A stretch of 64,000 bases of DNA from NCBI GenBank assembly GCA_963708235.1, contig OY970200.1:395146-459145 (forward strand), read 5' to 3'. Below, piece after piece: positions 9,627 through 63,922 of this stretch. Position 1 is the stretch's first letter; each line of letters begins with the position of its first letter. Made by a program: the position numbers and the translations under genes. The notes beneath the pieces were generated by a model. That model was not told the origin of the DNA, ran no database searches, and was given only the letters and a program-made list of their open reading frames with translations. The stretch is from an uncultured Acidimicrobiia bacterium. Its GTDB lineage: Bacteria; Actinomycetota; Acidimicrobiia; Spongiisociales; UBA5794.

Positions 9627-11048
9627 GTGGTACGTTGCCCCATGATCATCACCATGACGACCCGGTCCGCAGCCCGTCGGCTGGTGGTGATGGCGGTGAT
9701 CGCGTCGTTCGTGTTTGCCGTCGTACCGGCGGCGTCGGCCACCGCCACCTCGGTGCCGGCACCGTCGTGTCGTGACCACGACCCGTTCACCGCCGGGCTG
9801 TCCCAGCGACTTGCCGCCGATTACCCGAACCGGCGTTTCAGCGCCTCCGTGTACGACCAGCGCACCGGATGTCACTATCACCTCAACCGGTCGACCCGGA
9901 TCACCACCGCCTCGGTGTTCAAGATCGAGGTGATGGCAGGGGTGCTGCGTCGAGCACAGCTCGAGGGGCGCAAGGTCACCGCATCGGAATGGGACCAGAT
10001 GGTCCCGATGATCACGCAGAGCGCCAACCCGCCCACCAGCTCGCTCTACCTGTCGCTGGGCGGGATGAACGGGTTCGACCCCATCCACCGCGCCTTCGGA
10101 CTCACCGAGACCTCGCTCCCCCCGCCCAAGTGGGGGGCTACGGTGACCTCTGCCGCCGATCAGGTGAAGCTGATCCGTCAGGTGCTCCTCGGGGAGTTCG
10201 GGCCGCTCACCGCAGACAGCCGGGCGCTGGCATGGAAGCTGATGACCTCGGTGGTGCCGTCACAGCAGTGGGGGATCTCCGCCGGTCTCCCCAACCGTTG
10301 GCGGTTCGCCCTCAAGAACGGGTTCTACCCGCTCGGTGGCGGCGGGTGGCGGATCAACACCGCCGGATTCGTCGAGGATCTCGCCGGAGCCGGTTACGCC
10401 GTGGTGATCCTGTCGGACGGATGGCCCACCGAGGCGGCCGGGATCCGAGCGGTCGAGACCATCGCCACCGAGATCAACACCGTGCTGGCGCCACTCAGCG
10501 CCCCACCCGGGATCCCCTATGTCGACGTCGCCGCCGACGACTGGTTCTACGAGTCGGTGGTCTGGGCCCACGAGTCCGGGGTGACCAAGGGCGCCTCGGC
10601 GATCACCTTCGACCCGCTGTCATCGCTGACCCGCGGCCAGATGGCGGCGTTCCTGGTGCGTGCCTTTGCCCTCCCCAAGATCTCCGGACCGAAACGGTTC
10701 ACCGACACCACCGGGTCGATCTTCGCCGACGACATCGAACGTCTCGGCGCCGCCGGGATCACCCGGGGCTGTAACCCGCCCGCCAACACGCACTACTGCC
10801 CCGACCGCACCATCACCCGCGGGGAGATCGCCGCCATGGTGGCCCGCGCCCTCGATCTCCCGAGGCCACCCCCCGGCGACCGCTTCACCGACGACAACTC
10901 CTCGGTGTTCGAATCCGACCTGGAACGCATGGCCGGCGCCGGTCTGCTCATCGGCTGCAACCCGCCCGCCAACACCCGGGTGTGCCCCACCACAAATGTC
11001 ACCCGCGCCCAGATCGTGGTGATCCTGCACCGAGCATCGATGGATTGA
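9627..11048 (+). CDS. Secreted beta-lactamase-family (class A-like) serine hydrolase with three C-terminal SLH-like repeats
   Basis: Signal peptide MTTRSAARRLVVMAVIASFVFAVVPAASA (possible Tat RR). S-x-x-K motif in ASVFKIEVMAG. Three C-terminal repeats ending ITRGQ/ITRGE/VTRAQ, typical of S-layer-homology domains. Alternative starts at 9642 and 9654. Confidence 0.6.
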   Translation: MVRCPMIITMTTRSAARRLVVMAVIASFVFAVVPAASATATSVPAPSCRDHDPFTAGLSQRLAADYPNRRFSASVYDQRTGCHYHLNRSTRITTASVFKIEVMAGVLRRAQLEGRKVTASEWDQMVPMITQSANPPTSSLYLSLGGMNGFDPIHRAFGLTETSLPPPKWGATVTSAADQVKLIRQVLLGEFGPLTADSRALAWKLMTSVVPSQQWGISAGLPNRWRFALKNGFYPLGGGGWRINTAGFVEDLAGAGYAVVILSDGWPTEAAGIRAVETIATEINTVLAPLSAPPGIPYVDVAADDWFYESVVWAHESGVTKGASAITFDPLSSLTRGQMAAFLVRAFALPKISGPKRFTDTTGSIFADDIERLGAAGITRGCNPPANTHYCPDRTITRGEIAAMVARALDLPRPPPGDRFTDDNSSVFESDLERMAGAGLLIGCNPPANTRVCPTTNVTRAQIVVILHRASMD

Positions 11049-41438: not shown

Positions 41439-41939
41439 CTAGCGGGTGACGGCGACCGAATCCTCGAACTCGACGGAGTTGACCTCATCGGTGTAGGCGA
41501 CGGTCGGCGCCGTGATCTCCACCCACTCGAAGATCGGGCGGGGGTTGTTCGCCGGGTCGTGGACGTCGGGGCTGGTCGTGGCAACCGCCGAGATCCGGGC
41601 GTTCGAGAGTTGGATGCTGAACCGGTGCCGGGTCTCACCCGAATCGGGGTTGGTGTCGAACAGCTTGATCGTGCCGTCGAGAACCTGGTTCATGACCAAT
41701 GCCCGGTACAGCAACGGTGTGGTGCGGTCGGTCGGCTTGCGGATACGAACCGGGTCGATGGTGCGTCGCCCGGCGCGCGCCGACCCCGCCTCCTTTGCGG
41801 CCTGCCGCGACCCGAAATGCAGCTCATAGCCCTCGATGTGATCTGCGGACACATCGACCCCACCCATCGTTGAATTGGAGACGTCGCCGGTCAGGGCGCT
41901 CCCGTTGATCGTGAACTCGCAATAGAACAGCTGAGCCAT
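41439..41939 (-). CDS. Hcp-family (T6SS inner-tube-like) protein, orphan
   Basis: ATG 41939 with GAGGGAGG SD. MAQLFYCEFTING..HIEGYELHFGSRQ..IDPVRIRKPTDRTTPLLYRALVMNQVLDGTIKLF aligns with Hcp1 (IDVLAWSWGMSQ..LSFTKYIDKSTPNLMMACSSGKHY..). GC ~63%, below the local background. Confidence 0.6.
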   Translation of the reverse strand: MAQLFYCEFTINGSALTGDVSNSTMGGVDVSADHIEGYELHFGSRQAAKEAGSARAGRRTIDPVRIRKPTDRTTPLLYRALVMNQVLDGTIKLFDTNPDSGETRHRFSIQLSNARISAVATTSPDVHDPANNPRPIFEWVEITAPTVAYTDEVNSVEFEDSVAVTR

Positions 41940-42138
41940 CGTCGTTCCTCCCTCGTCGAATCCCACATCGAGGATGCTCCCGGTGCGAAACCTACCCGAG
42001 GGAGGTATCCGCTGTGGATCGCCGGGAAGGCCGTCTTCCGCCGTCTGCGCACCGGGCGCGCTCCTGGTGGACCGAACTCATCATGTAGAGCGAAGAAACA
42101 TCTTGTACTCTCGGTAGACATCAATTACAATCGAACAC

Positions 42139-43413
42139 ATGTTCGCTTCAGGTTTCTTCGACAACGAAGACCGGTTGATGTCACGGTCGATGCGGTTGGC
42201 CTATGCCGATGTCGACGATGCGCGATCCGACCTGGTTCGCATCGAGGGCCAGATCGCCGAACTCCGTGCCGAACAGATCCGGATCCTGGCGTGGCTCGAC
42301 GCCCGCAAGGTGGCTCGGGTCGAAAAGGCGCGGTCGATGGAAGAATGGACGGCGGCGACCCTCGACGTGACCCCGGCGACTGCCCGTGATCTCGTGTCCG
42401 TCGCCCGCAGCGAAGACGAGGTCCCTGCGGTGCGGGACGATCTCAGCAGCGGGGCCATCACGTTCGACCGGGCCGTGGCGACCGGTGCGCTGGTGGCGGC
42501 GGGCGGAACCGAACACGACGTCGCCGAGAGTCGCGATCGCGATCTCGTCGGCGTTCGCCGCCGTACCGCCCAGTTGAAGCGGGTCACCCGTGTCGACGAG
42601 GAAGAGCTGATGCGGCAGCGTCACCTGTCGATCACTCCCACCCTGGGCAACACCGCCTGGAAGATCAGCGGAATCGCTCCCGGATATGAAGGTCACGTCA
42701 TTGCCAAGGCCCTCGAGCAGGTAGCGGAGGGATTCCCGTCCAACCGGGCGGGCGGAAGCGAGCAGAGCCGTTCACAGCGGATGCTCGATGCGCTCACCGC
42801 ACTCTCCCAGGATGCCCTCGACGGACTGAACGCGGTCGATCTCGTCGATCCCGTCGACGACGATGATGACGACGACGGTCATCCGATACCGTCGACCGAT
42901 CCGGGTACCCCGATCCGGTTGGTCGGGTCATCGGTGACGGTGTTCCTCGATGGGGACCGGGCCGCACAGAGTGCCGGGGAGCTCGGTGGGGAGATCGCCG
43001 CCGGCCCGCGCATCGGCCCTGACACCTTGGACCGCATTCTGTGCGGTGGAACGATCGGTCTGGTGGTGCTGGACCGGAACGGCAAACCGGTGGTTTCGAC
43101 CCCCAGGTCCCGCCGCATCCCACCGGCGATCCGGGATTTCGTACTTCGTCGCGACGGCGGATGTGTGATGGAAGGGTGTCGAAGTCGGTATCGGCTCGAA
43201 CCTCACCACATCCTGCGCTACGCCGATGGTGGCACGCACCATGTCGACAATCTGGTGACGCTGTGCTGGCATCACCATCACGTCGTGGTTCACCGCTCCG
43301 GTGAGCGAATCGATCCCGACAGTCCGCCGCACCGTCGAAGATTCCTCCGCCCCGGCGAACGACGCGCCCTCATCGAGGCCGAACGGATCGCCATGGCCCG
43401 GGACATCGAGTGA
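42139..43413 (+). CDS. DUF222 + HNH endonuclease protein (REP13E12-like family)
   Basis: C-terminal HNH: CRSRYRLEPHHILRYADGGTHHVDNLVTLCWHHHHVVVH. N-terminal domain as in the mycobacterial 13E12 repeat proteins. AT-rich promoter region upstream. Confidence 0.7.
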   Translation: MFASGFFDNEDRLMSRSMRLAYADVDDARSDLVRIEGQIAELRAEQIRILAWLDARKVARVEKARSMEEWTAATLDVTPATARDLVSVARSEDEVPAVRDDLSSGAITFDRAVATGALVAAGGTEHDVAESRDRDLVGVRRRTAQLKRVTRVDEEELMRQRHLSITPTLGNTAWKISGIAPGYEGHVIAKALEQVAEGFPSNRAGGSEQSRSQRMLDALTALSQDALDGLNAVDLVDPVDDDDDDDGHPIPSTDPGTPIRLVGSSVTVFLDGDRAAQSAGELGGEIAAGPRIGPDTLDRILCGGTIGLVVLDRNGKPVVSTPRSRRIPPAIRDFVLRRDGGCVMEGCRSRYRLEPHHILRYADGGTHHVDNLVTLCWHHHHVVVHRSGERIDPDSPPHRRRFLRPGERRALIEAERIAMARDIE

Positions 43414-51314: not shown

Positions 51315-54300
51315 TCAGCTGCAGCCCTTGCTGTCGCCGCAGTTGAGGCAGCGGTAGCAGGAGCCGTTTCGCACGGTGATGTGACCGCAGGTGTCGCACA
51401 GGGGGGCGTCGCCCATCTTGTCGGCGAGGGCCTGCTGGACGGCGGCGGTCTGGACATCGGCGTTGGTGTGCACCCGGGCGGCGGCGGCAGGTGGGGCGGT
51501 CGCCGTGGCGGTGGCGGTCCCGTTGCCGTTGCTGTGGACGTGGTGACCGTTGCTGCCGGTGCCGTTGGACGGCGCGGTGTCGTCGTCGTCGTCCGTGAAG
51601 CGGGCGGCGGCGATCTCGGCGTCGATGTCGCTCTCCATGGCGGAGTCCTCGAGACCGAGCTGCAGACCGGCTTCGACGGCCATGCCCTTCGGGGGCTCGG
51701 GGAGGCTCATCGAACGGTCGGGCGGCACCTGGGCCAGTTCGTCGCGCTCGAGGTACTCCACACCGAGGGCACGGAACACGTAGTCGACGATCGAGTTCGC
51801 CATCTTGATGTTGGGGTGGCCCTCCACCATGCCGCGGGGCTCGAACGTCTGGAAGGTGAAGGTGTCGACGAACTCCTCGAGCGGGACGCCGTACTGCAGA
51901 CCCTTGGACACCGCAATGGCGAAGCAGGACAGGATCCCACGCAGGGTGGCGCCTTCCTTGGCCAGGTCGATGAAGACCTCACCGAGCGTCCCGTCCGGGT
52001 ACTCGCCGGTGCGGAGGAACACCTTGTGACCGCCGATGCGGCCTTCCTGGGTGTACCCGCCACGGCGCGACGGGAGCAGGAAGCGGGGACGGGGCAGATC
52101 TTTGTAGGCCTCCGACGGGGACGCCCCGGGACGGAACATCCCGGCGTGGACCATGGCGTTGCCGTTCATCACCAACTCGCGCTCGGTGGTGAGCGCCTCG
52201 TCGAGACCTTCGTCCTCGTCCTCGGCGACCGCATCGTCGGACTTCGCCGACAGCGGCTGGGACGCCTTGGAACCGTCGCGGTACAGCGCCATCGCCTTGA
52301 GACCCAGTTCCCACGACATGTGATAGGACTCTTCGATGTCCTCGACCGTCACCTCGTTGGGCATGTTGATCGTCTTCGAGATCGCCCCCGAGATGAACGG
52401 CTGGGCCGCCGCCATCATCTTGATGTGGCCGGTGTGGTGGATGAACCGCACCCCGATCTTGCCGTTGCGGTTGGCCGTGTCGAACACCGGGAGATGCTCG
52501 TCACGCAGGTGCGGGGCGCCCTCGATGGTCTGCCGCCCACAGATGTGGTCGTTGGCCTCGCGGATGTCCTGGTCGGAGAACCCGACCGCCTTGAGCATGT
52601 TGAAGCCGGGATCGTTGTACTGCTCGGAGGTGAAGCCGAGACGGCGCATCGTCTCCTCGCCCAGCGTCCACTGGTTGAAGGCGAACCCGAGCTCGAACAC
52701 ACCCGGGAGCACCGACTCGATCTTGTCGATGTCGTCGGCCGAGAAACCCTTGGCGATCAGCGTGGCGGTGTTGACGTGCGGCGCCCGGTTCAGGCTCATC
52801 GTCCCGACCACGTACTCGATGATCTGCTGGACCTGGTACTGGTCGTAGCCGAGACGCTCCAGCGCCGGGCGGATCGACTGGTTGGCGATCTTGAAGTAGC
52901 CGCCACCGGCCAGCTTCTTGAACTTGACCAGCGCAAAGTCGGGCTCCACCCCGGTGGTGTCGCAGTCCATCAACAGCCCGATGGTGCCGGTCGGCGCCAG
53001 GACCGTGGTCTGGGCGTTGCGGTAACCGTGCTCCTCACCCAGCGACACCGCGGCGTCCCAGGCGGCGTGGGCCTGCTCCAACATCTCCGGTGGGCACAAC
53101 GCCTGGTCGATCCCGACCACGAAGTGCGACACCTGGTCGTACTCGTCCTGCTCGGCGCCGTAGGCGGCACGGCGATGGTTCTCCATCACCCGCAGCATCG
53201 AGTCGCGGTTGTCGTCGAACTTGGGGAAGGCGCCGAGCACCTCGGCCATCTCCGCCGAGGCGGCGTACGAGTAGCCGGTGAGGATGGCGGTGAGCGCCCC
53301 GGCGATGGTGCGACCCTGATCGGAGTCGTACGGGATACCCGCCCGCATCAGCAGCGACCCAAGGTTGGCGTAACCGAGACCAAGCGTGCGGTAGTCGAAG
53401 CTGCCCTGGGCGATCGCCGCCGAGGGGAACTGCGCCATCGTCACCGAGACCTCCAACACCACGGTCCACAGCCGGATGGCGTGGCGGTAGCCGTCGAGGT
53501 CGAACGACCCGTCCGGGTTCTCGAAGGAGACCAGGTTGAGCGACGCCAGGTTGCAGGCGGTGTTGTCGAGGAACACGTATTCCGAGCACGGGTTGGTGGC
53601 CCGGATCCGACCACCGGCGGGGGAGGTGTGCCACTCCTGGATGGTGGTGTCGAACTGGACACCGGGATCGGCGCACTGCCAGGCGGCGTCGGCGATCTGA
53701 CGCCACAGCTCGCGGGCCTTGAGGGTCTTCATCACCGAGCCGTCGGTGCGGGCGGTGAGGTTCCAGTCGGCGTCGGCGAGCACCGCCTCGACGAACTCGT
53801 TGGAGAGCCGCACCGAGTTGTTGGAGTTCTGACCGGAGACGGTGGCGTAGGCCTCGCCGTTGAAGTCGGCGGAGTAGCCGGCGGCGACCAGCGCCCGGAC
53901 CTTCTTCTCCTCCTCGGCCTTCCAGTTGATGAAGGTCTCGATGTCGGGGTGGTCGACGTCGACGATCACCATCTTGGCGGCGCGGCGGGTCGTGCCACCG
54001 GATTTGATTGCCCCGGCGGCGCGGTCGCCGACCTTGAGGAAGCTCATCAGCCCCGAGGACTTGCCGCCACCGGAGAGCATTTCGCCCTCGGCCCGGATGT
54101 GCGAGAAGTTGGCGCCGGACCCGGCACCCATCTTGAACAGGCGCGCCTCGCGGACCCACAGGTCCATGATTCCGCCTTCGTTGACCAGGTCGTCGTCGAC
54201 GCTGTTGATGAAACAGGCATGGGGAGCGGGGTGGCTGTAGGCGTCGTCGGCCTCGACCAGCTCCTCGGTCTTGGGGTCTACGTACCAGAACCCCTGGGCG

Positions 54301-54773
54301 GTGCCGGTGATGCCGTAGGCGTGGTTGAGACCGGTGTTGAACCACTGCGGAGAGTTCGGGGCGGCCATCTGGTGGACCAGCATGTAGGCCATCTCGTCCT
54401 CGAACGCCTGGGCATCGTCGGCGGTGGCGAAGTAGCCGTGCTCCTCCGCCCACCAGCGCCACGTCGACGCCAGCCGACCGATGACCTGGCGCGCCGAGCG
54501 CTCCGGCCCGGTGACCGGGGCACCGTTCTCGTCGAGGATCGGATTGCCGGCGTCGTCGACCTGGGGGACACCGGCCTTGCGGAAGTACTTGGAGACCATG
54601 ATGTCGGCGGCGACCTGCGACCACCCGGAGGGGATCTCGGCGTCCTTCATCTCGAAGACAACCGAGCCGTCGGGGTTGGTGATCCGGCTGTCCCGATGGG
54701 ACCATTCGACAGTGGAATAGGGGTCCGATCCCTCTGTCGTGAACCGGCGTTCGATCCGCAGACCCTTGGTCAT
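51315..54773 (-). CDS. nrdJ: Vitamin B12-dependent (class II) ribonucleotide reductase
   Basis: Class II RNR core motifs (NPCSEY, CNLASLNL) and C-terminal zinc-ribbon CDTCGHITVRNGSCYRCLNCGDSKGC. Start chosen at MTKGLRIE (ATG 54773) with GGGAGGGATGAGC SD. Confidence 0.85.
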   Translation of the reverse strand: MTKGLRIERRFTTEGSDPYSTVEWSHRDSRITNPDGSVVFEMKDAEIPSGWSQVAADIMVSKYFRKAGVPQVDDAGNPILDENGAPVTGPERSARQVIGRLASTWRWWAEEHGYFATADDAQAFEDEMAYMLVHQMAAPNSPQWFNTGLNHAYGITGTAQGFWYVDPKTEELVEADDAYSHPAPHACFINSVDDDLVNEGGIMDLWVREARLFKMGAGSGANFSHIRAEGEMLSGGGKSSGLMSFLKVGDRAAGAIKSGGTTRRAAKMVIVDVDHPDIETFINWKAEEEKKVRALVAAGYSADFNGEAYATVSGQNSNNSVRLSNEFVEAVLADADWNLTARTDGSVMKTLKARELWRQIADAAWQCADPGVQFDTTIQEWHTSPAGGRIRATNPCSEYVFLDNTACNLASLNLVSFENPDGSFDLDGYRHAIRLWTVVLEVSVTMAQFPSAAIAQGSFDYRTLGLGYANLGSLLMRAGIPYDSDQGRTIAGALTAILTGYSYAASAEMAEVLGAFPKFDDNRDSMLRVMENHRRAAYGAEQDEYDQVSHFVVGIDQALCPPEMLEQAHAAWDAAVSLGEEHGYRNAQTTVLAPTGTIGLLMDCDTTGVEPDFALVKFKKLAGGGYFKIANQSIRPALERLGYDQYQVQQIIEYVVGTMSLNRAPHVNTATLIAKGFSADDIDKIESVLPGVFELGFAFNQWTLGEETMRRLGFTSEQYNDPGFNMLKAVGFSDQDIREANDHICGRQTIEGAPHLRDEHLPVFDTANRNGKIGVRFIHHTGHIKMMAAAQPFISGAISKTINMPNEVTVEDIEESYHMSWELGLKAMALYRDGSKASQPLSAKSDDAVAEDEDEGLDEALTTERELVMNGNAMVHAGMFRPGASPSEAYKDLPRPRFLLPSRRGGYTQEGRIGGHKVFLRTGEYPDGTLGEVFIDLAKEGATLRGILSCFAIAVSKGLQYGVPLEEFVDTFTFQTFEPRGMVEGHPNIKMANSIVDYVFRALGVEYLERDELAQVPPDRSMSLPEPPKGMAVEAGLQLGLEDSAMESDIDAEIAAARFTDDDDDTAPSNGTGSNGHHVHSNGNGTATATATAPPAAAARVHTNADVQTAAVQQALADKMGDAPLCDTCGHITVRNGSCYRCLNCGDSKGCS

Positions 54774-54841
54774 GCTCATCCCTCCCAGGGGGTGTGGCGC
54801 CCACCACGAGCGCCGTATGTAATCCACAGGTTTATCAACAG

Positions 54842-54889
54842 CCACTACATATGGGGGTGGGGGAGTCTGGCTGACCCAATATGTAGCGC
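54842..54889. promoter_or_regulatory. Two NrdR-box-like 16-bp sites spaced 32 bp centre to centre upstream of nrdJ
   Basis: cCACTACATATGGGGg (54842..54857) and, on the opposite strand, gcGCTACATATTGGGt (54874..54889), versus consensus acacTAtATaTagtgt. The spacing of ~3 helical turns is typical of NrdR operators. Confidence 0.55.
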
Positions 54890-55102
54890 AGACCCCCGAT
54901 CATAGTTACAGATGTGTAACTACGTCAAGGGGGTTCGGGGGGTCTCCCGGCCTGTTCGCCGCACATGCCCGACCGACCCCCACAGTTCTACCGCCGCCGC
55001 CGCTTCGGGGGCAAGTCGAGAGGGTGGTTATGTTTCGCGACGGCTCCTGACTTTTCGCGACGAAGGAGGTCACGACCGCCAGATCTCGGCCGGCGGCGGG
55101 GG

Positions 55103-55540
55103 TCAGGTTGCGAGTTCGACGCTCTCACAGGCGATGGTGATGGTCTCGATGGCGATGTCGTTGCTGCCGGCGTCGAGCGTCGGTCCCTCGTACATCGACG
55201 GCCATGCGTTGAAGAAGTTCCACCGGGCCACCTCCTGTCGACGGCGGTCGAGCAGGATCACCGAGATGGTGCGACGTTCGTCCTCGCCGCCGGCGACCGT
55301 CTCGAACCACCGCCACAGGTTCGGGTTGCCGTCGTATCCCCGGGTCAGCTTGAGGTCCCCGATCTCGACCGAGCCCATCAGGCGGCGTGCGCTCAGTCTG
55401 CGGTCGTCGCCCTCGCGCACCCGCATCGGCTGTGCCGAGATCTTGGGGAGGTCGGCGATGATGAAATCACTCACCTCGACCCCGGATATCTCGACGATGA
55501 AGTTGAATGCGCTGAACGGGTCGCCGTCTCGTGTGGTCAC
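55103..55540 (-). CDS. Phage T4 gp19-like / eCIS Afp1-type tail tube protein, orphan
   Basis: GTG 55540 with AAGGGGG SD. FNFIVEISGVE..KLTRGYDGNPNLWRWFE..ISVILLDRRRQEVARWNFFNAWPSMYEGPTLDAGSNDIAIETITIACESVEL matches the TIGR02241/PF06841 pattern (ISVILLD..RW..NAWP.K..GP...A.GN.VAIETLEIAHEGL). Confidence 0.7.
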   Translation of the reverse strand: MTTRDGDPFSAFNFIVEISGVEVSDFIIADLPKISAQPMRVREGDDRRLSARRLMGSVEIGDLKLTRGYDGNPNLWRWFETVAGGEDERRTISVILLDRRRQEVARWNFFNAWPSMYEGPTLDAGSNDIAIETITIACESVELAT

Positions 55541-55605
55541 CTCTACCCCCTTGTCGTCGCCACCGTCACCGGGGGTTGCCGAACCGCCGGTGGACGCCGT
55601 TCAGA

Positions 55606-58173
55606 CTACGGGACGTCGAGGTCCGATGACGGGGCAAGCGGCGTGGCGTCCGGCTCGGTGATGGTGCCGACATCGACCAGGCTGGCATGGAGATCGAAGG
55701 CGGCCTTGCGTTGCAGCCTGCGGTACTCCTCGACATGAACGGCGATCGCCGCCGCCACCTCGTCGCGCTCGGCGATGATGCGGTCGGTGACGGCGTCGAG
55801 GCGGTCCATCTCGTCGGTCCGGATCACGGCGGCTTCCTGACCCACCGACCGGGCGAAGTCCCTCACCTTGGGGCGGTACTCCAACGCCACGAACGGGGTC
55901 CCGGCGGCTGCGGCCATGATCGAGGCATGGAGCCGCTCGCCGATCACCACATCGGCCGACCCCAGCAGTCCCATGGTGGCGTCGAGGTCGGCGTATCCGG
56001 CGACATAGGGCATGTCGGCGGCGCCGGCCCGTCGCATCAGGTCGATGACCCAGCGGTCATCCTGGGGGAACGCCGACAACATCACGACCTCGCGTCCGTC
56101 GGCCCTGAGCCGGGCGATGGTCGTGGCCAGCGCATCGAACACCACATCGTCGCTGCCGCCGTGCAGGTTTCCCGTGGTGTACACCGGGCAGACCACGACC
56201 CGACCGTCGACCCGTTCCGTCCCTTCCGGTGCGAACAACGACAGCGCCGGATCCCCGATCACCGGCAGATCTCGGTGATAGCCCATGGTGCGGAGGTTGA
56301 CCACCGAATCGGGTCCACGCACGGCGGCGAACAGGGCACTGTCGATGAACCCGAACCACTCCTCCATCGGTTCGGTCACCCCCCAGTACTCCGGGCTGCG
56401 CACCCCGGTCCCGAACAGCGCACGTTCCACCACGGCGCTCTCCTGACGGAGCATCCGGTTCAGGTAATAGCGCCGGCCGTTGAGCAACGTGCCGCCACCC
56501 ACCATCACCAACCTGGGGTCGACCGGCTCGCGCTGCAGATCGGCCCACGGCATCAGCCGCTGGATGGCCAGCATCACCGCCTCGTCGCCGAGGTTGTCGT
56601 GGCCGGTGAATCCGACATACGCCACCGACAGCCGCTCGGCGCCGGCGGCGGCGACCGGATCGCCGGTGGTCGGGACACCGGTGGTTGCGGCATCGGCGGT
56701 CCGGTCATCGGACGAGCCGGTCCGGCGACGGAACTCCTTCACCATCGAACGTGCCAGTTCCCGAACTCCGAGTGCGGGGAGGTCCCCGAGACCGGGGCGT
56801 CGGGTCGGTGGCGGGCTGATGGCGGCGAAGCGCGGATCATCCAGGTCGACAAGGGAGGTGATGACCAGCGCCGGGACGCTCCGCTCCACCGTGGCGGCCC
56901 ACGCAGCGTGCGGTGCGGCCAGCAGGTCGGGGCGCTTCATCAGCTCGCGGCGGCGGGCGATGGCAAACAGCGGAAGTCCGTGAGGCCCGACCGCCGAGTC
57001 GACGGCGAGGAGGTCGTCGAGCCGGAGGTAGCGGTCACCCCCGATGCGGTAGGCGTGGCGCAACACCGCCACCTCGGGCTCGGTGTCCATACGATGGACC
57101 GCCTTGGCGAGAAGACCCACCGGCGGGGTCACCCGGGCGTCGAGGAACGCCACCAACTCCCCGGTGCTGGCGGCGAGCGCCTCGGCGAAGACATCCGGGC
57201 CCTCTCCGATCACCACGGAGAGCTTCGGGTTCGATGCGGCGACCGCGGTCAGATGACCCACCGCCTCGTCCCGTCCGTGAACGACCAGCTCGATGTCGCC
57301 GAACGGGCCCGCCGCAATGGCATCCCGAGCGGCATCGGCGGTCTCGGCGGTGGCGGCGGCGACGAGCCAGGAGACCTTCGGCACCGAAGCGAGCGGCGAG
57401 GAGAGCGGACGGGTTGCCGCATGGGGAATGCGGTCGGCGAGCACCCCGGCGAGACCGGGATCGTCCCCGGTGGTACCCGCTACCGCCGGGAGCGTGGCGG
57501 TAGCACTCCAATCGGGGACCACGAACGCCCCGTCGTTCCACAGTCGCCACCCCAGCATCGCATCGGTGCCCACCGCCAACCACGGAGTGAACCCGCCGGT
57601 GGGGTCGAAGCGACGACGGCGCACCGACATGTTGCTCGTCGGCAGCGTGAGGAACCCGGTGCCCCCGACCAGCAACAGTCGCGATCGCCGCTCGTTGCGG
57701 GACCGGTCGTCACCATCGCCGTCGGGGGTGGTGCCCGGGGTGTGGCCGGTCACCACGGTGTTGTCGGCACGTCGGTGCCAGGCGGTGTGCTGTTCGATGA
57801 AACCGGGATCCACGAGCGATCCGGCATCGAGAAAGATCAGGATCTCGCCGCCGGCCACGGCTGCGCCCAGATTGCGACGGGTGGCGACATCGTCGGAATC
57901 CGGGTCGACCGGAAGTACCGGCCAAGTTCCCGCACGGTCGGGGACGGGTCCGGCGGCGCCCACCGTCACGATCTCGACATCGCCTGGGTAGTGGTCGGCT
58001 CCGAGCGAGTCGAGTGTGGCGGTTGCGGCGCCGACGGCGACCCCCGACCCGACGGTCACCACCACGGTGACGGTCGGGGGCGGAGCGGGGTCACGATCGA
58101 GGATGCCGCGGTAGTCGTTGCCGGCTGCGTCCCAGGGAGCGGGTTCCCGGGGAGGGACATGGATTGTGCTCAT
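55606..58173 (-). CDS. Multidomain cell-wall glycan enzyme: GT2 glycosyltransferase + C-terminal polysaccharide pyruvyl transferase (CsaB-like)
   Basis: GGEILIFLDAGSLVDPGF (GT-A DxD region) N-terminally. C-terminal YVGFTGHDNLGDEAVMLAIQRL...GGGTLL resembles PS_pyruv_trans. Confidence 0.6.
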   Translation of the reverse strand: MSTIHVPPREPAPWDAAGNDYRGILDRDPAPPPTVTVVVTVGSGVAVGAATATLDSLGADHYPGDVEIVTVGAAGPVPDRAGTWPVLPVDPDSDDVATRRNLGAAVAGGEILIFLDAGSLVDPGFIEQHTAWHRRADNTVVTGHTPGTTPDGDGDDRSRNERRSRLLLVGGTGFLTLPTSNMSVRRRRFDPTGGFTPWLAVGTDAMLGWRLWNDGAFVVPDWSATATLPAVAGTTGDDPGLAGVLADRIPHAATRPLSSPLASVPKVSWLVAAATAETADAARDAIAAGPFGDIELVVHGRDEAVGHLTAVAASNPKLSVVIGEGPDVFAEALAASTGELVAFLDARVTPPVGLLAKAVHRMDTEPEVAVLRHAYRIGGDRYLRLDDLLAVDSAVGPHGLPLFAIARRRELMKRPDLLAAPHAAWAATVERSVPALVITSLVDLDDPRFAAISPPPTRRPGLGDLPALGVRELARSMVKEFRRRTGSSDDRTADAATTGVPTTGDPVAAAGAERLSVAYVGFTGHDNLGDEAVMLAIQRLMPWADLQREPVDPRLVMVGGGTLLNGRRYYLNRMLRQESAVVERALFGTGVRSPEYWGVTEPMEEWFGFIDSALFAAVRGPDSVVNLRTMGYHRDLPVIGDPALSLFAPEGTERVDGRVVVCPVYTTGNLHGGSDDVVFDALATTIARLRADGREVVMLSAFPQDDRWVIDLMRRAGAADMPYVAGYADLDATMGLLGSADVVIGERLHASIMAAAAGTPFVALEYRPKVRDFARSVGQEAAVIRTDEMDRLDAVTDRIIAERDEVAAAIAVHVEEYRRLQRKAAFDLHASLVDVGTITEPDATPLAPSSDLDVP

Positions 58174-58183
58174 CGGGAAATCC

Positions 58184-59944
58184 TCACGAGGCGAGGGGAT
58201 GGTCGGAGCGGCGCATACGGTATCCGATCCCCCCGAGGTCGGCGCGCAGCAGACCTGCGGAGATGGTGACGTCGGCGTCCGGGGCGACCTGGGCGAGGAT
58301 GTCGGTCACGGCGGCGATGTGCGGCTCGGTGGCATAGACATAGCCGCGTGCGGAGGCCACCGCCTGTGCCAGGGCCCCGGTGGCGCCGGGGCCGAAGGCC
58401 ACCGCATCGAAGGACCGGGGACGGAGCCGGTCGGGATCGGGTTCCCGGATCACCCGGTCGTCCAGTCCGAGCGGATCGGTGACCCCGAACACCGCCACCT
58501 CCTGAACCTCGACATCGCGGTCGATCAGGGCGCCCAGTGCGGTGTGCGGCCCCCCAGGTGGTGCGGTGACAGGGGTGGGGTCGGTGGCGGCGGCGATCGC
58601 CAACAGTTCGTCGACCCGGTGGTCGTACGTGTGATGGTCGGCGACGTGGCGGTACGCCGCCGCCGCCACGCCGGCGCTGGAACCCGAGACGAGGAGGTCC
58701 TCGACCTGGCCGGCGACGTCGTCTCCGAGCGGCGCATAGTGGTCGTGGCGACGCAGCAGCACCTCGGTACCGGGGAGATCTTCGGTGAGGAGCAGCGCCC
58801 CGGCGCCGATCGCCTCGAACACCCGCATCGTGATCGGGAAGTGCTTGGTGCCCCCGTCGTTCACCACGATCCGGCTGTCGCCGTAGAGGGCGAGCATCTC
58901 CTCGGGGGGAACCCCGTAGGCGAACGTGGTGCGCCCCGGGAGGCTCGCTTCCAGATCCTCGATGATGCGGCGACGACGGTCGTACCGGCTCCCGGCGCCA
59001 CCGACCCCGGCACCCACCATGGCCACTTCGTGGGTGCGGTCCTCCCAGGGTTTCGGATCGTTGAACATCTCGGGGGCGACGGCGAAGGGGAATCGATGGA
59101 CCGGGAGCGGGAACCGGTGGGCCAGATGCCAACTGTGCGCCAGCAGCACCGCATGTGCCCCGTACCGGCGGGCGAGCCGGAGATTGGTGGGGAGGTGATG
59201 TTCCCCGTGGTGGACCCACCACAACACCGGGACCCCCGGATTCTGTCCCACCACCTCGAGAGCCGGGTAGGGGCTCTCCACGATCACGAGGGCGGCGGTT
59301 CCCGCCGAGATCCGGTTCCAGTCGAGCACACCGTCGAGCACGGTGACGTCGGCTCCGGATCGGCGCAACGCCGCCTCCAGATAGCGACCGGGATTGGTGG
59401 GGGTCACCCGGTAGGCAATGGCGACCTGGACCCCCTGATGCCGACCGGGTTCGGGATGTGACGGGGGCCGGTGGTCGCCGGGGAGGTGGAACGGCGCCGA
59501 CGATCCATCCGGAGATGCTCCCCACCGTGCCGAGCCCGGTGCCAGGGCGACCAGATCGCGGGCGGCCACGGCGGCGGGGATCTGCCATTCGGGACGTCTG
59601 ACGATCGGTGCGTCGACCGTGGTCACCAGGTCGAGGTCGTCGAACCCGACCGGGTAGACGACGTCGGGGGTCGAGGCGGCAACCGCACGCCGCAGCATCC
59701 GGGTGAACACCTGGCTGCGGACCTTGGGCGGTTGCAGGCGACGCAGCATTCGACCGACGGCGCCGCGTCCCTGCGGCACCCGGGACGGGATCGTGACCAG
59801 CTCGGCGTCGTCGGGGAAGCCGGGTTCGGCAGCCCCGCCGCAGACCACGGTGACGCGGTGGCCGGCGCCGAGCAGCGAGACGACAAGAGCCCGGGCCCTG
59901 GGGTCCCGCGTGAGATTGCGGCGCGAGACGACGCAGATGCGCAT
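58184..59944 (-). CDS. Putative two-domain glycosyltransferase (GT4-like N-domain + CgeB/GT1-like C-domain)
   Basis: MRICVVSRRNL..ALVVSLLGAGHRVTVV N-terminus. C-terminal ..RVFEAIGAGALLLTED... Weak assignment. Confidence 0.4.
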   Translation of the reverse strand: MRICVVSRRNLTRDPRARALVVSLLGAGHRVTVVCGGAAEPGFPDDAELVTIPSRVPQGRGAVGRMLRRLQPPKVRSQVFTRMLRRAVAASTPDVVYPVGFDDLDLVTTVDAPIVRRPEWQIPAAVAARDLVALAPGSARWGASPDGSSAPFHLPGDHRPPSHPEPGRHQGVQVAIAYRVTPTNPGRYLEAALRRSGADVTVLDGVLDWNRISAGTAALVIVESPYPALEVVGQNPGVPVLWWVHHGEHHLPTNLRLARRYGAHAVLLAHSWHLAHRFPLPVHRFPFAVAPEMFNDPKPWEDRTHEVAMVGAGVGGAGSRYDRRRRIIEDLEASLPGRTTFAYGVPPEEMLALYGDSRIVVNDGGTKHFPITMRVFEAIGAGALLLTEDLPGTEVLLRRHDHYAPLGDDVAGQVEDLLVSGSSAGVAAAAYRHVADHHTYDHRVDELLAIAAATDPTPVTAPPGGPHTALGALIDRDVEVQEVAVFGVTDPLGLDDRVIREPDPDRLRPRSFDAVAFGPGATGALAQAVASARGYVYATEPHIAAVTDILAQVAPDADVTISAGLLRADLGGIGYRMRRSDHPLAS

Positions 59945-59974
59945 GGCCCGAGATGGTAGTGGCGGAGCGCCCGG

Positions 59975-61237
59975 TCAACCGATGTGGTCGGTGAGCAGGT
60001 TCATCCAGGTGGCGGCGACATCGTCGAAGGCGTAGCGGGACACGACCTGTCGCTGTGCCCGGGCGGCGGCCGCCGCCCAGCTGACGGCGGAGCTGTTGAT
60101 CTCGAGGATGCGTTCCGCCATCTCCGGGGCGGTGCCACTGAGCCACTCGTCGGCGTAGATGGCGTCGGCGCCGGGCCACGACCTCACCATCGGGACCGCA
60201 CCCGATGCGGCGCCCTCGGCCGGCGCCAGGTGGAAACTCTCGTCGTCCGAGGTCGACAGGACGAACCCGATGCTCCGCAGCCACGCCGCCACATCCGGAC
60301 CCGGGGCGTCGAACACCACCGCTTCACCCAGCAGCCGCTCCTCGTCGAGACGGCGACGGATGGCGGCGAAGTAGTCCTGTTCGGCGGGGCGGTCCTCCAC
60401 CCACTTCAACCCCCACGGCAGCGCACCCTTGAGGAACAGACGGTATCTGGGATCCGCCTGCCGCAGCTCGGTCAGGGTGTCCAACGCCAGGTCGAGTCGC
60501 TTGCGCGAGGAGGCGATCCCCAGCATCCCGAGATGGAACCGGGCGTCGGGATGTTTGGCCCGCGCCAGTTGGAGGTCGTCGACGAAGTTCGGGATCACCC
60601 GGACCTTCCCTGCGGGCCAGCCTGTCACCCGGAGGATCTCGTCGCGATAGTGCGGGCCGACCGCCACCACCACGTCCACGGCGTCGATGTCGATGTCGCG
60701 CCATTCCGGGTGGGTCAGTTCCATCCGGTGGAGACGGACCACGAGTCGCTGGTCGGGCCGTTTGGTGCGGCTGGCGAGAACCGCATTCGGTCCCGCCCAT
60801 TCGCAGACCACGATGTCCGCCCACTCCAGTGTCCCGGCGGTGGTCGCCTCGTCGTGGGCACGGAAGCGGGGCCACTCGTCGACCTTCACCTCGAAGCGTC
60901 CCGAATGCCGCCACCGCGTCACCAGGGGGTTGATGAACTTGAGGTCGGTTCCGACAACCGCCAACCGGTGCGGCGGACCGGTCACTCCCGGGTCGGGGCG
61001 GAGCCGGGCGAGCAGTTGCAGCGGGGACTCGCCGGCAACGGTCTTGCCCGCCGCAGCGTGGATCCGTTGCTCGAGGTCACCGCGTTCCTCCTCGGTGGCG
61101 CACACCACCAACTCTGCGTCGGCAACCGCATCGGCGTCGGGGTCCTCGATCCGGCGTGGCGTCAGTTCCATCGCCCGCAACATGTGGACCAGCCCCGCGG
61201 AGACATCGCCACAGATCAGAACCGGGCGCAGCATCAC
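59975..61237 (-). CDS. GT4 (group 1) glycosyltransferase
   Basis: EX7E region ESFHLAPAEGAASGAVPMV. Confidence 0.6.
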   Translation of the reverse strand: MMLRPVLICGDVSAGLVHMLRAMELTPRRIEDPDADAVADAELVVCATEEERGDLEQRIHAAAGKTVAGESPLQLLARLRPDPGVTGPPHRLAVVGTDLKFINPLVTRWRHSGRFEVKVDEWPRFRAHDEATTAGTLEWADIVVCEWAGPNAVLASRTKRPDQRLVVRLHRMELTHPEWRDIDIDAVDVVVAVGPHYRDEILRVTGWPAGKVRVIPNFVDDLQLARAKHPDARFHLGMLGIASSRKRLDLALDTLTELRQADPRYRLFLKGALPWGLKWVEDRPAEQDYFAAIRRRLDEERLLGEAVVFDAPGPDVAAWLRSIGFVLSTSDDESFHLAPAEGAASGAVPMVRSWPGADAIYADEWLSGTAPEMAERILEINSSAVSWAAAAARAQRQVVSRYAFDDVAATWMNLLTDHIG

Positions 61238-62139
61238 GGAACCGGTTTCCGAACCGGCCCCGCGGTGACGGAGTCGGGTGCGACCAGTTCGAGACCGGTC
61301 AGTGTGGCCAGTGCGGTGCGGATGTCATCCCACGACCTCGGCTCGGGGGCGTCGGCACCGCTCACCACAACCCCCGAAGCGGTTGCTTCGGTGGCGAGAT
61401 GGCGCATCGTCGGCGAGTCCGGGGCGTCGATCGTCAACTCACCGGCGGTGCGGAGTGCCGCTGCCAGCCGGTGGGGGTGGAGCAGCAACGGCTGGCCGAT
61501 CACCGCATCGCCGGTCAGCGGTTCGACCGAGACGATCCGTGCGGCGGTCGGTGACGGTCCCGGTGTGGGGGCGAACAGGGTGGTGTCGATGCCGTGGGGG
61601 AGGTGCTGCGCCGACGACCACTCGCAACCGGGAGCGGCGACGATGTGGTCGCAGGAGGCGGCGATGCGCTCCAGGTCGGAGGTCGGGGCCACCACATCCC
61701 AACGGAACACCGTGACCACGCCGGCGGTGCCCAGCTCGTCGACGATCCGCATCACCAGTTCCGTCACCGCCCACCGGCCCCCACCCATTCCCGCCCACAC
61801 CGAACCGGCGTCTCCGGCGGAGGCGTCGATCACCAGCACGCGGGCCCCGCCAGGGAGTCCCGACACCCGGTTGGGGTGGAGTGCGGTGATCCAGCTCGGA
61901 ACCCGCACCGCATGGAAACCCGAAGTGATGGTCACCACCGGGGTGGTCGGTGGGTCCTGGCCGGAGAGTTGCGGGACCGGCAGGTCGTCCCACGAGGGAA
62001 CGGACCCGGTGGGTCGGTCGTCGACCGGGTCCGGTGGGGGTGGCTCGACGGGTCCGGGGGCCGTCTCCCCGATGGTCTCCGGCTCGGACCGGCGCCGTCG
62101 CAGCAGCCGATCGATGCGGGACCGCTCACGGCGTGACAT
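61234..62139 (-). CDS. Hypothetical protein in the glycosyltransferase cluster
   Basis: Start at internal Met MSRRERSRIDRL (ATG 62139) to avoid a 200-bp overlap. Pro-rich N-terminal region. Confidence 0.3.
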   Translation of the reverse strand: MSRRERSRIDRLLRRRRSEPETIGETAPGPVEPPPPDPVDDRPTGSVPSWDDLPVPQLSGQDPPTTPVVTITSGFHAVRVPSWITALHPNRVSGLPGGARVLVIDASAGDAGSVWAGMGGGRWAVTELVMRIVDELGTAGVVTVFRWDVVAPTSDLERIAASCDHIVAAPGCEWSSAQHLPHGIDTTLFAPTPGPSPTAARIVSVEPLTGDAVIGQPLLLHPHRLAAALRTAGELTIDAPDSPTMRHLATEATASGVVVSGADAPEPRSWDDIRTALATLTGLELVAPDSVTAGPVRKPVP

Positions 62140-63922
62140 CGGCGACCTCGGAACGTTCGGGGTGGAATCCGCTCCAGGCATCGTCGGAACCGGCGAGGAA
62201 GACGGCGTCGTCGGCCTCCCAGGTGTGGCCGGCGGGGCGACGGACATAACAGAACTCCCATCGACTTCCGGCATACACGGCGGCGTCGGTCCGGCGTGCC
62301 GCACGCAGGAACCCGGTGTCGACATGACGGGGCCGGTGGGGGAACCCGACCCGGTCCCACACGTGGCGGGCGAAGACCAGTGTCGCTCCGTTCGGGGAGC
62401 CGTCGATCAGCATCTCCTCCTGACCGGGCCGGCGCAGCACGGTGCGGTCCCGGCCGGCCAGATAGGTGAACTGGGTGCCCTTGCCGACGATCTCGGCGCC
62501 CGAATAGGTCATGGCGTGGACGCTGTCCTCGAGGTGCGCCGGACCGTAGTGGTCGTCGTCGTCGATCTTGGCGAGGACTGGCGCCGACGTCGCCGCCGCC
62601 GCCAGATTGAGACATTCGCCGAGCGACCGGGAGCGGTCGAACTCGAGCACGGTGACCGGGATCTCGGCGCGGTCGATGGCATCGGTTATCGAGGCGTCGC
62701 GGCGAGCGCCGTGGATCCCGACCACCAGTTCGGTGAGCGGGTAGGTCTGGTGGAGAAACCCGGTGATGGCGCCGGGGAGGTCCTCGGGGCGGTGCGATAC
62801 GAGCAGACCGGCGACCCTGGGGAGCGCTGCCGGCGCCGTGAGCCCCATCAGGTCGAGAACCTGGGCGGCCCGCACCCACGGCGCATGATGACGGTAGGCC
62901 CACCGACGCGCCGCCACCGAGTCGGCCGAAGCGTCACGACCCGCCGGAGGGGGTCCGATGGGGACACCCGAGGCGGCGAGCTCGATCATCCAGAGCGGCG
63001 GCCCGGTCGAATGCCCGTCGGCGCGATCCACCCGGATCGGCTGACCGCCGGCCAGCACCACGGTGGCGCCGTCCCGGTGGTCCTCGTCGGTAGCAGGTCC
63101 AGGGGTCCACGGACCGGAGGGTCGGTGGGTGGCGGGGTCGAAACAACCCGGGAGGAGGTGTCCGCCAGACGCTGCGGCGTTCGAGACGTCGGTGGTCGCC
63201 AGAACATCGGTCGGAGACATCAGTGCGGCGACCTCGCCGAGGTCGGCGTCGCCGGTCCACACCAGCAGCCGCTGCCGTCCCGGTTCGGCGGTCCACGATG
63301 CGAACCGGTCCCGGACCGTCCGGTCCAGGTGGTGAAACGTGGTCGGGTCGATGATCACCAGGTCGGCCTCGTCGAGATCGCCGGCGGTGGCGGCAGCCAG
63401 ATCGACCGTGTCGAACGATGACGCCGCGCGGCTGATCCCCGGGTCGTCCACCGCCACGACGGCACGGATCGAGGTGATGTCCGGACCCCCGTGGCGGGCG
63501 GAGACCGTCTGCGGCGCCGGGGTCGTCTCGGGCGGGGTCGTCTCGGGCGGGGTCGTCTCGGGCGGGGTCGTCTCAGACTGGGCGTCGGCGGTCACCGGGG
63601 TCGCAGATGCGGGCTTTCGGGGCGTCACCGGTGGGGGTGCGGGCGTGCCGGGCTTCCCGGATCGGAGGGCGGCGCGGACCTTGTCGACAAAAGTCCGTTG
63701 CGCCGCCTCGGCGGTGCGGGCTGCCTGCTCGGCCCGGATGCGTTCGATGCGTTCGCTGCGGCGTTCGGCGCGATCCCTCCACACCTCGATGCGCTCCAGG
63801 AGTTCCTCGATGCGGATCTCGGCACGGCGCCGTCGCACCCGCTCGTCGCGCAGTGCTTGTTCGAGTTGGGCCTGTTCCGGCGGCGTCGGTTCCGGCGGGA
63901 TCGGTCGGTCGGGATCGTCCAT
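62126..63922 (-). CDS. GT2 glycosyltransferase with N-terminal coiled-coil and a TPPE-repeat linker
   Basis: KIDDDDHYGP (DxD) in the C-terminal half. N-terminal ERVRRRRAEIRIEELLERIEVWRDRAERR coiled coil. 15-bp x4 tandem repeat at 63519..63578 encodes TPPETTPPETTPPETT. Confidence 0.5.
   Translation of the reverse strand: MDDPDRPIPPEPTPPEQAQLEQALRDERVRRRRAEIRIEELLERIEVWRDRAERRSERIERIRAEQAARTAEAAQRTFVDKVRAALRSGKPGTPAPPPVTPRKPASATPVTADAQSETTPPETTPPETTPPETTPAPQTVSARHGGPDITSIRAVVAVDDPGISRAASSFDTVDLAAATAGDLDEADLVIIDPTTFHHLDRTVRDRFASWTAEPGRQRLLVWTGDADLGEVAALMSPTDVLATTDVSNAAASGGHLLPGCFDPATHRPSGPWTPGPATDEDHRDGATVVLAGGQPIRVDRADGHSTGPPLWMIELAASGVPIGPPPAGRDASADSVAARRWAYRHHAPWVRAAQVLDLMGLTAPAALPRVAGLLVSHRPEDLPGAITGFLHQTYPLTELVVGIHGARRDASITDAIDRAEIPVTVLEFDRSRSLGECLNLAAAATSAPVLAKIDDDDHYGPAHLEDSVHAMTYSGAEIVGKGTQFTYLAGRDRTVLRRPGQEEMLIDGSPNGATLVFARHVWDRVGFPHRPRHVDTGFLRAARRTDAAVYAGSRWEFCYVRRPAGHTWEADDAVFLAGSDDAWSGFHPERSEVADVTP

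Follow-up and report, generated by a model that had tools for sequence, protein, structure and literature searches.

A solitary gp19/Afp1-type tube gene in an uncultured Acidimicrobiia bacterium, likely a divergent member of a sheath-less lineage

Introduction

The definition of contractile injection systems (CIS) rests on the trio of tube, sheath and baseplate. What, then, is a tube gene that has neither of the other two beside it? Such a gene is found in a 64-kb stretch of DNA from an uncultured Acidimicrobiia bacterium, which was analysed as a whole and is called the window here. A reading of the window's letters, the original prediction, had described it as an unambiguous CIS tube gene between nrdJ and a cell-wall glycosyltransferase cluster, and had proposed that it is perhaps no stray part of a contractile machine, with an unrecognised minimal structure or a decoy or immunity-like use of the tube fold as candidate roles. 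Two large eCIS surveys recognised their loci by afp11 occurring together with afp1/5, or by the gene content of the operon (PMC6899500, PMC8213781), and these requirements for baseplate genes or an operon exclude solitary tube genes by design. The orphan gene of the window led to a large group of tube genes that never stand beside a sheath.

The tube gene and its product

The gene at 55103..55540 on the (-) strand is an intact ORF of 145 aa with a GTG start and a TGA stop. On the coding strand, its 5' flank reads CGACAAGGGGGTAGAG directly before the GTG and includes a Shine-Dalgarno-like AAGGGGG (55546..55552, (-)) at a spacer of 5 nt; both the ORF coordinates and the AAGGGGG element had been predicted exactly. 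The start fits the N-termini of homologues, which share a conserved D-P at residues 7-8, and no signal peptide is visible by eye. The frame of 145 codons stays open in a genome of 68% GC. Its GC3 of 0.86 is the same as that of the adjoining genes, and no compositional step or GC anomaly crosses this region of the window. The view that the gene is not a pseudogene is borne out by these features.

The PF06841 profile (Phage_T4_gp19) matches the protein with 115.4 bits (E 2.1e-33, cut-off 28.2) over profile positions 2-133 of 134, and TIGR02241 matches with 92.9 bits at a cut-off of 62.4, which makes it a member of both families. The scores against the two CIS equivalog models remain far below their cut-offs, with 83.7 bits against 220 for CIS1_fam (NF053769) and 66.5 bits against 260 for CIS5_fam (NF053770). 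Thus, the assignment to a gp19/Afp1-type tube stands, while the "unambiguous" CIS tube of the original prediction does not: the protein is of CIS type by descent, yet no typical CIS tube. Its sequence matches in the PDB are all CIS tubes, namely 9r9h_B, Anabaena All3324, AlgoCIS (7adz), the S. coelicolor CIS tube, Pvc1 and Afp1, and the matches to Pvc5 and Afp5 are much weaker than those to Pvc1 and Afp1. Of 36 columns that are conserved family-wide, 28 are retained and eight are changed, and the C-terminal motif RWNFFNAWP is common to the window protein and canonical tubes.

The AF2 monomer model, of moderate confidence (mean pLDDT 74.5, with residues 36-53 poorly modelled), shows a beta-sandwich with one flanking helix (residues 74-83), which is the tube fold. 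In a Foldseek comparison with the PDB, CIS tube or adaptor chains take the first 15 places, with a probability of 1.00 and TM values of 0.58-0.66; the best chains belong to 7adz, 7b5h, 6rao, 6j0b and 9gts, and T4 gp19, pyocin and Hcp follow at lower ranks.

Genomic surroundings

Domain content confirms the predicted position of the tube gene between nrdJ and an array of glycosyltransferase and pyruvyl transferase genes, all on the (-) strand. Downstream lies nrdJ (51315..54845), a class II ribonucleotide reductase gene with Ribonuc_red_lgC, Ribonuc_red_2_N and TSCPD domains. Directly upstream is a gene for a fusion of a GT2 domain and a pyruvyl transferase domain with CsaB-like similarity (55606..58173), preceded by further glycosyltransferase-type ORFs at 58184..59944, 59975..61237, 61234..62325 and 62126..63922. 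The 5' gap between the stop of the GT2/pyruvyl transferase gene and the tube ORF is 65 nt long (55541..55605) and contains no predicted promoter-like or terminator-like site; the 3' gap measures 257 nt, and no terminator is predicted after the tube ORF. Probably, a same-strand array or transcription unit spans 55103..63922 and ends with the tube ORF. In the 3' gap, 175 nt downstream of the tube stop, a sigma-70-like promoter TTGACG-18-TATGAT (54899..54928, (-)) precedes nrdJ and encloses the palindrome TTACACATCTGTAA, and a second AT-rich element, CTACATATTGGG ... CCATATGTAG (54846..54880, (-)), follows it. Both the palindrome and the second element resemble NrdR-type operator boxes and may represent such sites. 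With this promoter-like site between the two genes, nrdJ appears to have its own control region. Just 3' of the tube stop, two copies of the direct repeat CGTCGCGAAA(A/C) are spaced about 25 nt apart (55040..55075, (-)).

An SLH-domain protein with a beta-lactamase-like domain is encoded at 9627..11048 (+). Together with the GT2/CsaB-like pyruvyl transferase, it suggests a pyruvylated secondary cell-wall polymer that anchors SLH proteins, and synthesis of such a polymer is the likely job of the glycosyltransferase array. The glycosyltransferase at 59975..61237 (-) also matches PF20706, "GT4 in conflict systems", with 32.1 bits at a cut-off of 26, and this match overlaps generic GT4 matches.

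Beyond these genes, the Pfam content of the approximately 45 ORFs in the window comprises inositol catabolism, ABC transporters, a gamma-glutamyltranspeptidase, a SNF2/SWIM pair, a DUF222/HNH endonuclease, the SLH-domain protein and an Hcp-like protein. The claim that the window holds no other CIS or phage gene was confirmed in three ways: Pfam detects no sheath, baseplate, spike, cap (DUF4255), AAA+ or phage gene among these ORFs, PHROGs match none of the ORFs that lack a Pfam family, and in a tblastn search with 26 proteins of two complete eCIS loci the tube ORF is the sole match in the window. No Rfam family and no tRNA gene were detected in the window. The second tube-fold gene that had been noticed is real as well. 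This solitary Hcp-like ORF of 175 aa (41439..41966, (-)) matches PF05638 with 43.2 bits and the Myxococcus Hcp 5urw with 71.5 bits, stays with 52.8 bits below the TIGR03344 cut-off of 58.9, and has no T6SS gene beside it in the window. It adjoins the DUF222/HNH endonuclease gene (42139..43413). Two adjacent giant ORFs, 963..4985 (+) with 1340 aa and 4989..9563 (+) with 1524 aa, show coding-type GC3 and no Pfam or PHROG family; the former matches a ZorA-like NCBIfam model with 23.5 bits, far below its cut-off of 190.

In a tblastn search of plasmids, the best matches of nrdJ and IolD are found in Alphaproteobacteria (54-61%) and that of the SNF2 helicase in Streptomyces (53%), a mixed signal as to the phylum; among the window's genes, only DUF222/HNH and DUF3670-SNF2/SWIM point to Actinomycetota. 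None of ten window proteins has a relative from another genome at 90% identity; nine form singleton clusters and one shares its cluster only with a 1.6-kb metagenome contig. This indicates a sparsely sampled lineage, in which the absence of close tube orthologues says little about horizontal transfer.

The same surroundings bear on a phage origin. PF06841 carries the name of T4 gp19, and the fold is of common origin. The family name and two weak PHROG tail-tube matches (44 and 27 bits) could point to the remnant of a myovirus prophage tail module, but this explanation is largely refuted and has hardly any probability left. The best matches in 50,697 phage records, to Bacillus phage BCD7 and Streptomyces phages, are 26-33% identical, and no relatives occur in IMG/VR contigs. 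The window contains no integrase, tRNA, terminase, capsid or other phage gene and no compositional anomaly, and both neighbours of the tube gene are cellular genes.

Canonical relatives in eCIS loci

A word-indexed search, in which 117 word-sharing candidates were scored, returned relatives of at most 45% identity. The two that lie on long contigs are both located directly behind the sheath gene in complete eCIS loci, which share the gene order Pvc16_N, sheath, tube, CIS_tube/LysM, Phage_base_V, PAAR, gp25 and a large baseplate protein. When 185,579 species-representative genomes were scanned, 321 relatives emerged, the best of them 43% identical to the window protein. Among 82 loci with tubes of 37-43% identity, 78 have the sheath gene directly upstream as well as baseplate and spike genes; L055 and L067 are sheath-less, and the last two loci are truncated by the end of their contig. 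The components of such a locus, that is, sheath, baseplate (Afp11/gp25), spike, cap and AAA+ ATPase, are absent from the 64 kb around the window gene.

Sheath-less relatives and their partner gene

An exhaustive HMMER search of 1.84 billion representatives revealed closer relatives, which had escaped the word-indexed search. The best match to the window protein is P0017, with 50% identity and 154.8 bits, and P0018 and P0020 are 43-46% identical. A profile search gave thousands of proteins; among the matches listed, relatives of 43-51% identity come mostly from soil metagenomes, and their named sources are Gaiellaceae or Solirubrobacteraceae. On three contigs, L084 (656 kb), L166 (89 kb) and L085 (8.8 kb), an ORF of 130-134 aa precedes the tube gene and overlaps its start by 8 nt. 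These pairs are flanked by ordinary cellular genes, and no CIS gene is found within up to 10 kb.

A scan of metagenomes added 80 loci, 70 of which lack a sheath or any other CIS match. In the remaining ten, which have such matches, the tubes are only 31-42% identical to the window protein. The 70 loci and L083-L085 constitute a sheath-less group of 73 loci, whose tubes are 40-51% identical to the window protein apart from two outliers at 35%. Sheath or baseplate matches occur in none of the 73, and this applies also to four loci whose available flank reaches 10 kb, either in both directions or upstream. An ORF of about 130 aa adjoins the tube gene in 66 of the 73 loci, in 63 of them upstream and in three downstream (L139, L149 and L152); four of the seven loci without a detected partner have too little flank to tell. 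The partner ORF (L084:9616-10008, L085:6566-6970, L166:9616-10008 and about 60 more in L086-L161) almost always lies immediately upstream of the tube, typically with the 8-nt overlap, and the two genes are probably translationally coupled.

The partner family comprises 1225 clusters at 90% identity (E <= 0.001), which are always called hypothetical protein. Searches gave no Pfam or PADLOC match, no PDB sequence match and no profile similarity to ten eCIS component families, and structure modelling predicts an Ig-like beta-sandwich. Within the partner clade, dN/dS was calculated for about 2,000 sequence pairs of each gene; the medians are 0.31 in the tube and 0.32 in the partner, and values near 0.3 indicate that both proteins are kept by purifying selection. 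The partner-like ORFs downstream of the tube (L067:3695-3967, L139:713-1057, L149:739-1080 and L152:1478-1831) are 35-41% identical to the main partner family, and the tubes of L139, L149 and L152 are nearer to canonical eCIS tubes, with 67-70% identity to L018. The occurrence of downstream partners beside eCIS-like tubes suggests that the association of tube and partner arose or moved more than once.

Other arrangements of tube-like genes were also encountered. A Candidatus Acidiferrum MAG (L055:8319-8756) and a further contig (L155:4125-4535) carry tube-like genes with neither sheath nor partner near; in L055, the genes on either side run in the opposite direction, and one of them encodes a MacB/FtsX permease. 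Solitary, partner-less tube genes are thus present in other phyla as well. The homologue P0022, of 335 aa, combines a hydrophobic, signal-peptide-like N-terminus with two tandem tube domains, a non-canonical PF06841 architecture.

Placement of the window gene

A neighbour-joining tree was calculated for 148 tube sequences labelled by context, with 200 bootstraps. It places P0017 as the sister of the window protein (94% bootstrap) and joins this pair to the partner-associated clade at 70%; the rest of the tree consists of canonical eCIS tubes. The method is simple, the support of 70% is moderate and the branches are long, so that this placement of the window gene is likely, not certain. At ten columns that discriminate between the clades, the window protein has the sheath-less state in six and the CIS state in none, and P0017 agrees with it in both counts. 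Neither net charge nor pI distinguishes the clades; the tubes are acidic throughout. On a contig of 1.8 kb, an MFS transporter gene precedes the P0017 gene at a distance of 67 nt; there is no partner upstream, and by eye the 3' flank on this contig shows no similarity to the spacer between tube gene and nrdJ in the window. A partner HMM found no match in the 64-kb window (best E 0.018, in a non-coding frame).

The window gene shares with the sheath-less group its position in the tree and the signature residues, at moderate support, and a neighbourhood free of sheath and baseplate genes; it does not share the partner. Judged from these comparisons, it is likely a divergent member of the sheath-less lineage without an adjacent partner. 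The window gene and P0017 are the most divergent of the group, with approximately 44% identity to partner-clade tubes that are themselves about 70% identical to each other, and represent a rarer, more divergent and partner-less branch. A function proposed for tube and partner together may therefore not transfer to the window gene.

This placement bears first on the explanation that the gene belongs to a complete or split CIS elsewhere on the chromosome, either as a stray paralogue or as its detached tube subunit, and that its product polymerises inside the sheath of that system. Several Afp1/5 paralogues are usual in eCIS loci, and split loci exist, as is known for Amoebophilus (PMC6899500). 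The retention of most of the universally conserved tube residues (28/36) also fits a working subunit. Against it stand the absence of sheath or baseplate genes from the 73 loci of its nearest group, the six sheath-less and zero CIS states at the signature columns and the scores far below the CIS1 and CIS5 equivalog cut-offs. A weaker point is that no second PF06841 protein of the 3,740,380-bp contig is found among the 117 word-sharing candidates or the best 120 profile matches listed. A detached subunit is therefore considered unlikely, and the initial suggestion that the gene is perhaps no stray part of a contractile machine has been strengthened, as its nearest relatives never occur beside a sheath or baseplate.

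The divergence of the branch could instead reflect decay. A relic without function, left over from a degraded eCIS or from the two-gene module and with a frame still open by chance or because the loss is recent, would agree with the low identity to partner-clade tubes, with the missing partner and with the eight changed universal columns. The intact 145-codon frame at 68% GC, the correctly spaced Shine-Dalgarno sequence and the native GC3 argue against decay, and the tblastn search with 26 eCIS proteins found neither frameshifts nor fragments of neighbouring CIS genes. Moreover, P0017 is full length and matches PF06841 with 105 bits at only 50% identity to the window protein, which implies long retention under constraint. 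A relic thus seems quite improbable.

The adjacent envelope-glycan genes, from which a functional link had been surmised, are not a conserved neighbour: P0017 follows the transporter gene, and the wider group occupies varied housekeeping contexts. Since it is not common to P0017 or the wider group, the adjacency is likely incidental. The same contexts speak against a tube-fold decoy or sensor in anti-phage defence. Some defence systems are known to be triggered by tail tube proteins. Among the distant fold matches of the window model is a complex of DSR2 with the SPR tail tube (8ygo), and the upstream glycosyltransferase that matches the conflict-system family PF20706 could be taken as a further hint. 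However, that match overlaps generic GT4, and the CsaB-like pyruvyl transferase of the array fits a cell-wall polymer cluster. PADLOC matches neither the tube nor the partner nor the adjoining genes, no effector-type domain is encoded beside the tube, and the relatives reside among housekeeping genes, not in defence islands. The decoy or immunity role of the original prediction is consequently not supported, and its probability is very low.

Proposed explanation and implications

With moderate confidence, the ORF is interpreted as encoding a sheath-independent descendant of an eCIS inner-tube protein of the Afp1/Cis1 type. According to this proposal, a group of tube-fold proteins, to which the window ORF would belong, has left the CIS loci, and most of its members pair the tube gene with the gene for the approximately 130-aa predicted beta-sandwich partner as a two-gene unit. 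As the conserved fold core is kept, the window protein most likely still assembles in the cytoplasm, into hexameric rings like those of Hcp or into short stacks. No contraction machinery would be involved; the protein could, for instance, serve as a ring-shaped scaffold or binding protein. Its gene is probably transcribed as the last one of the glycosyltransferase array.

A broader and more tentative idea, which is possible though doubtful, is that the lineage represents a further domestication of the phage-tail tube beside T6SS and eCIS. It would provide self-assembling, non-contractile rings or tubes free of sheath, baseplate and spike, usually with a small Ig-like protein at their side as cap, chaperone or anchor; the tube of the window and that of P0017 would work alone. 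If this is true, soil bacteria annotated as Gaiellaceae and Solirubrobacteraceae would commonly carry sheath-less tube modules, which eCIS surveys would be unable to see.

No account of sheath-less PF06841 modules turned up in a text search of the literature. The lineage without a sheath, the partner conserved in it and the partner-less branch appear to be undescribed; the building block itself is familiar. If these proteins assemble without a sheath, they would constitute a new cellular use of a viral building block and, with only two parts, a compact self-assembling scaffold that could readily be tested. For the genome studied here, an annotation as "phage tail protein" should not be taken as evidence of a prophage or an injection system.

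Comparison with known systems

The nearest kin of the window gene by sequence (40-51%), tree and signature residues is the provisionally defined unit of sheath-less tube and partner (L084, L085, L166 and L086-L156). Both lack a sheath or baseplate nearby. They differ in that the unit contains the approximately 130-aa partner, which the window gene has neither adjacent to it nor elsewhere in the 64 kb, and in that the window gene is far more divergent than the members of the unit are among themselves.

The tubes Afp1, Pvc1 and S. coelicolor Cis1 resemble the window protein in fold and in their size of about 145 aa and are its best matches of solved structure. Canonical tubes of this kind are encoded behind a sheath gene; near the window gene, none of the genes for sheath, baseplate, spike, cap and ATPase is present. 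The adaptors Afp5, Pvc5 and Cis5 have the same fold, and 6rao_F and 6j0n_n are among the top Foldseek matches to the window model; these adaptors belong to a baseplate context that the window gene lacks. Myophage tail tubes, the kin of T4 gp19, are more remote, with an identity of 26-33% at most in the phage records searched.

The Hcp protein of the T6SS belongs to a different family (PF05638, not the PF06841 of the window protein), and its structures are distant fold matches to the window model. Hcp has the tube fold, forms hexameric rings unaided and is often encoded away from the main T6SS cluster; orphan Hcp proteins still work with a T6SS sheath that is encoded elsewhere. Its self-forming rings and its coding away from the cluster make Hcp the best functional analogy for a solitary tube gene.
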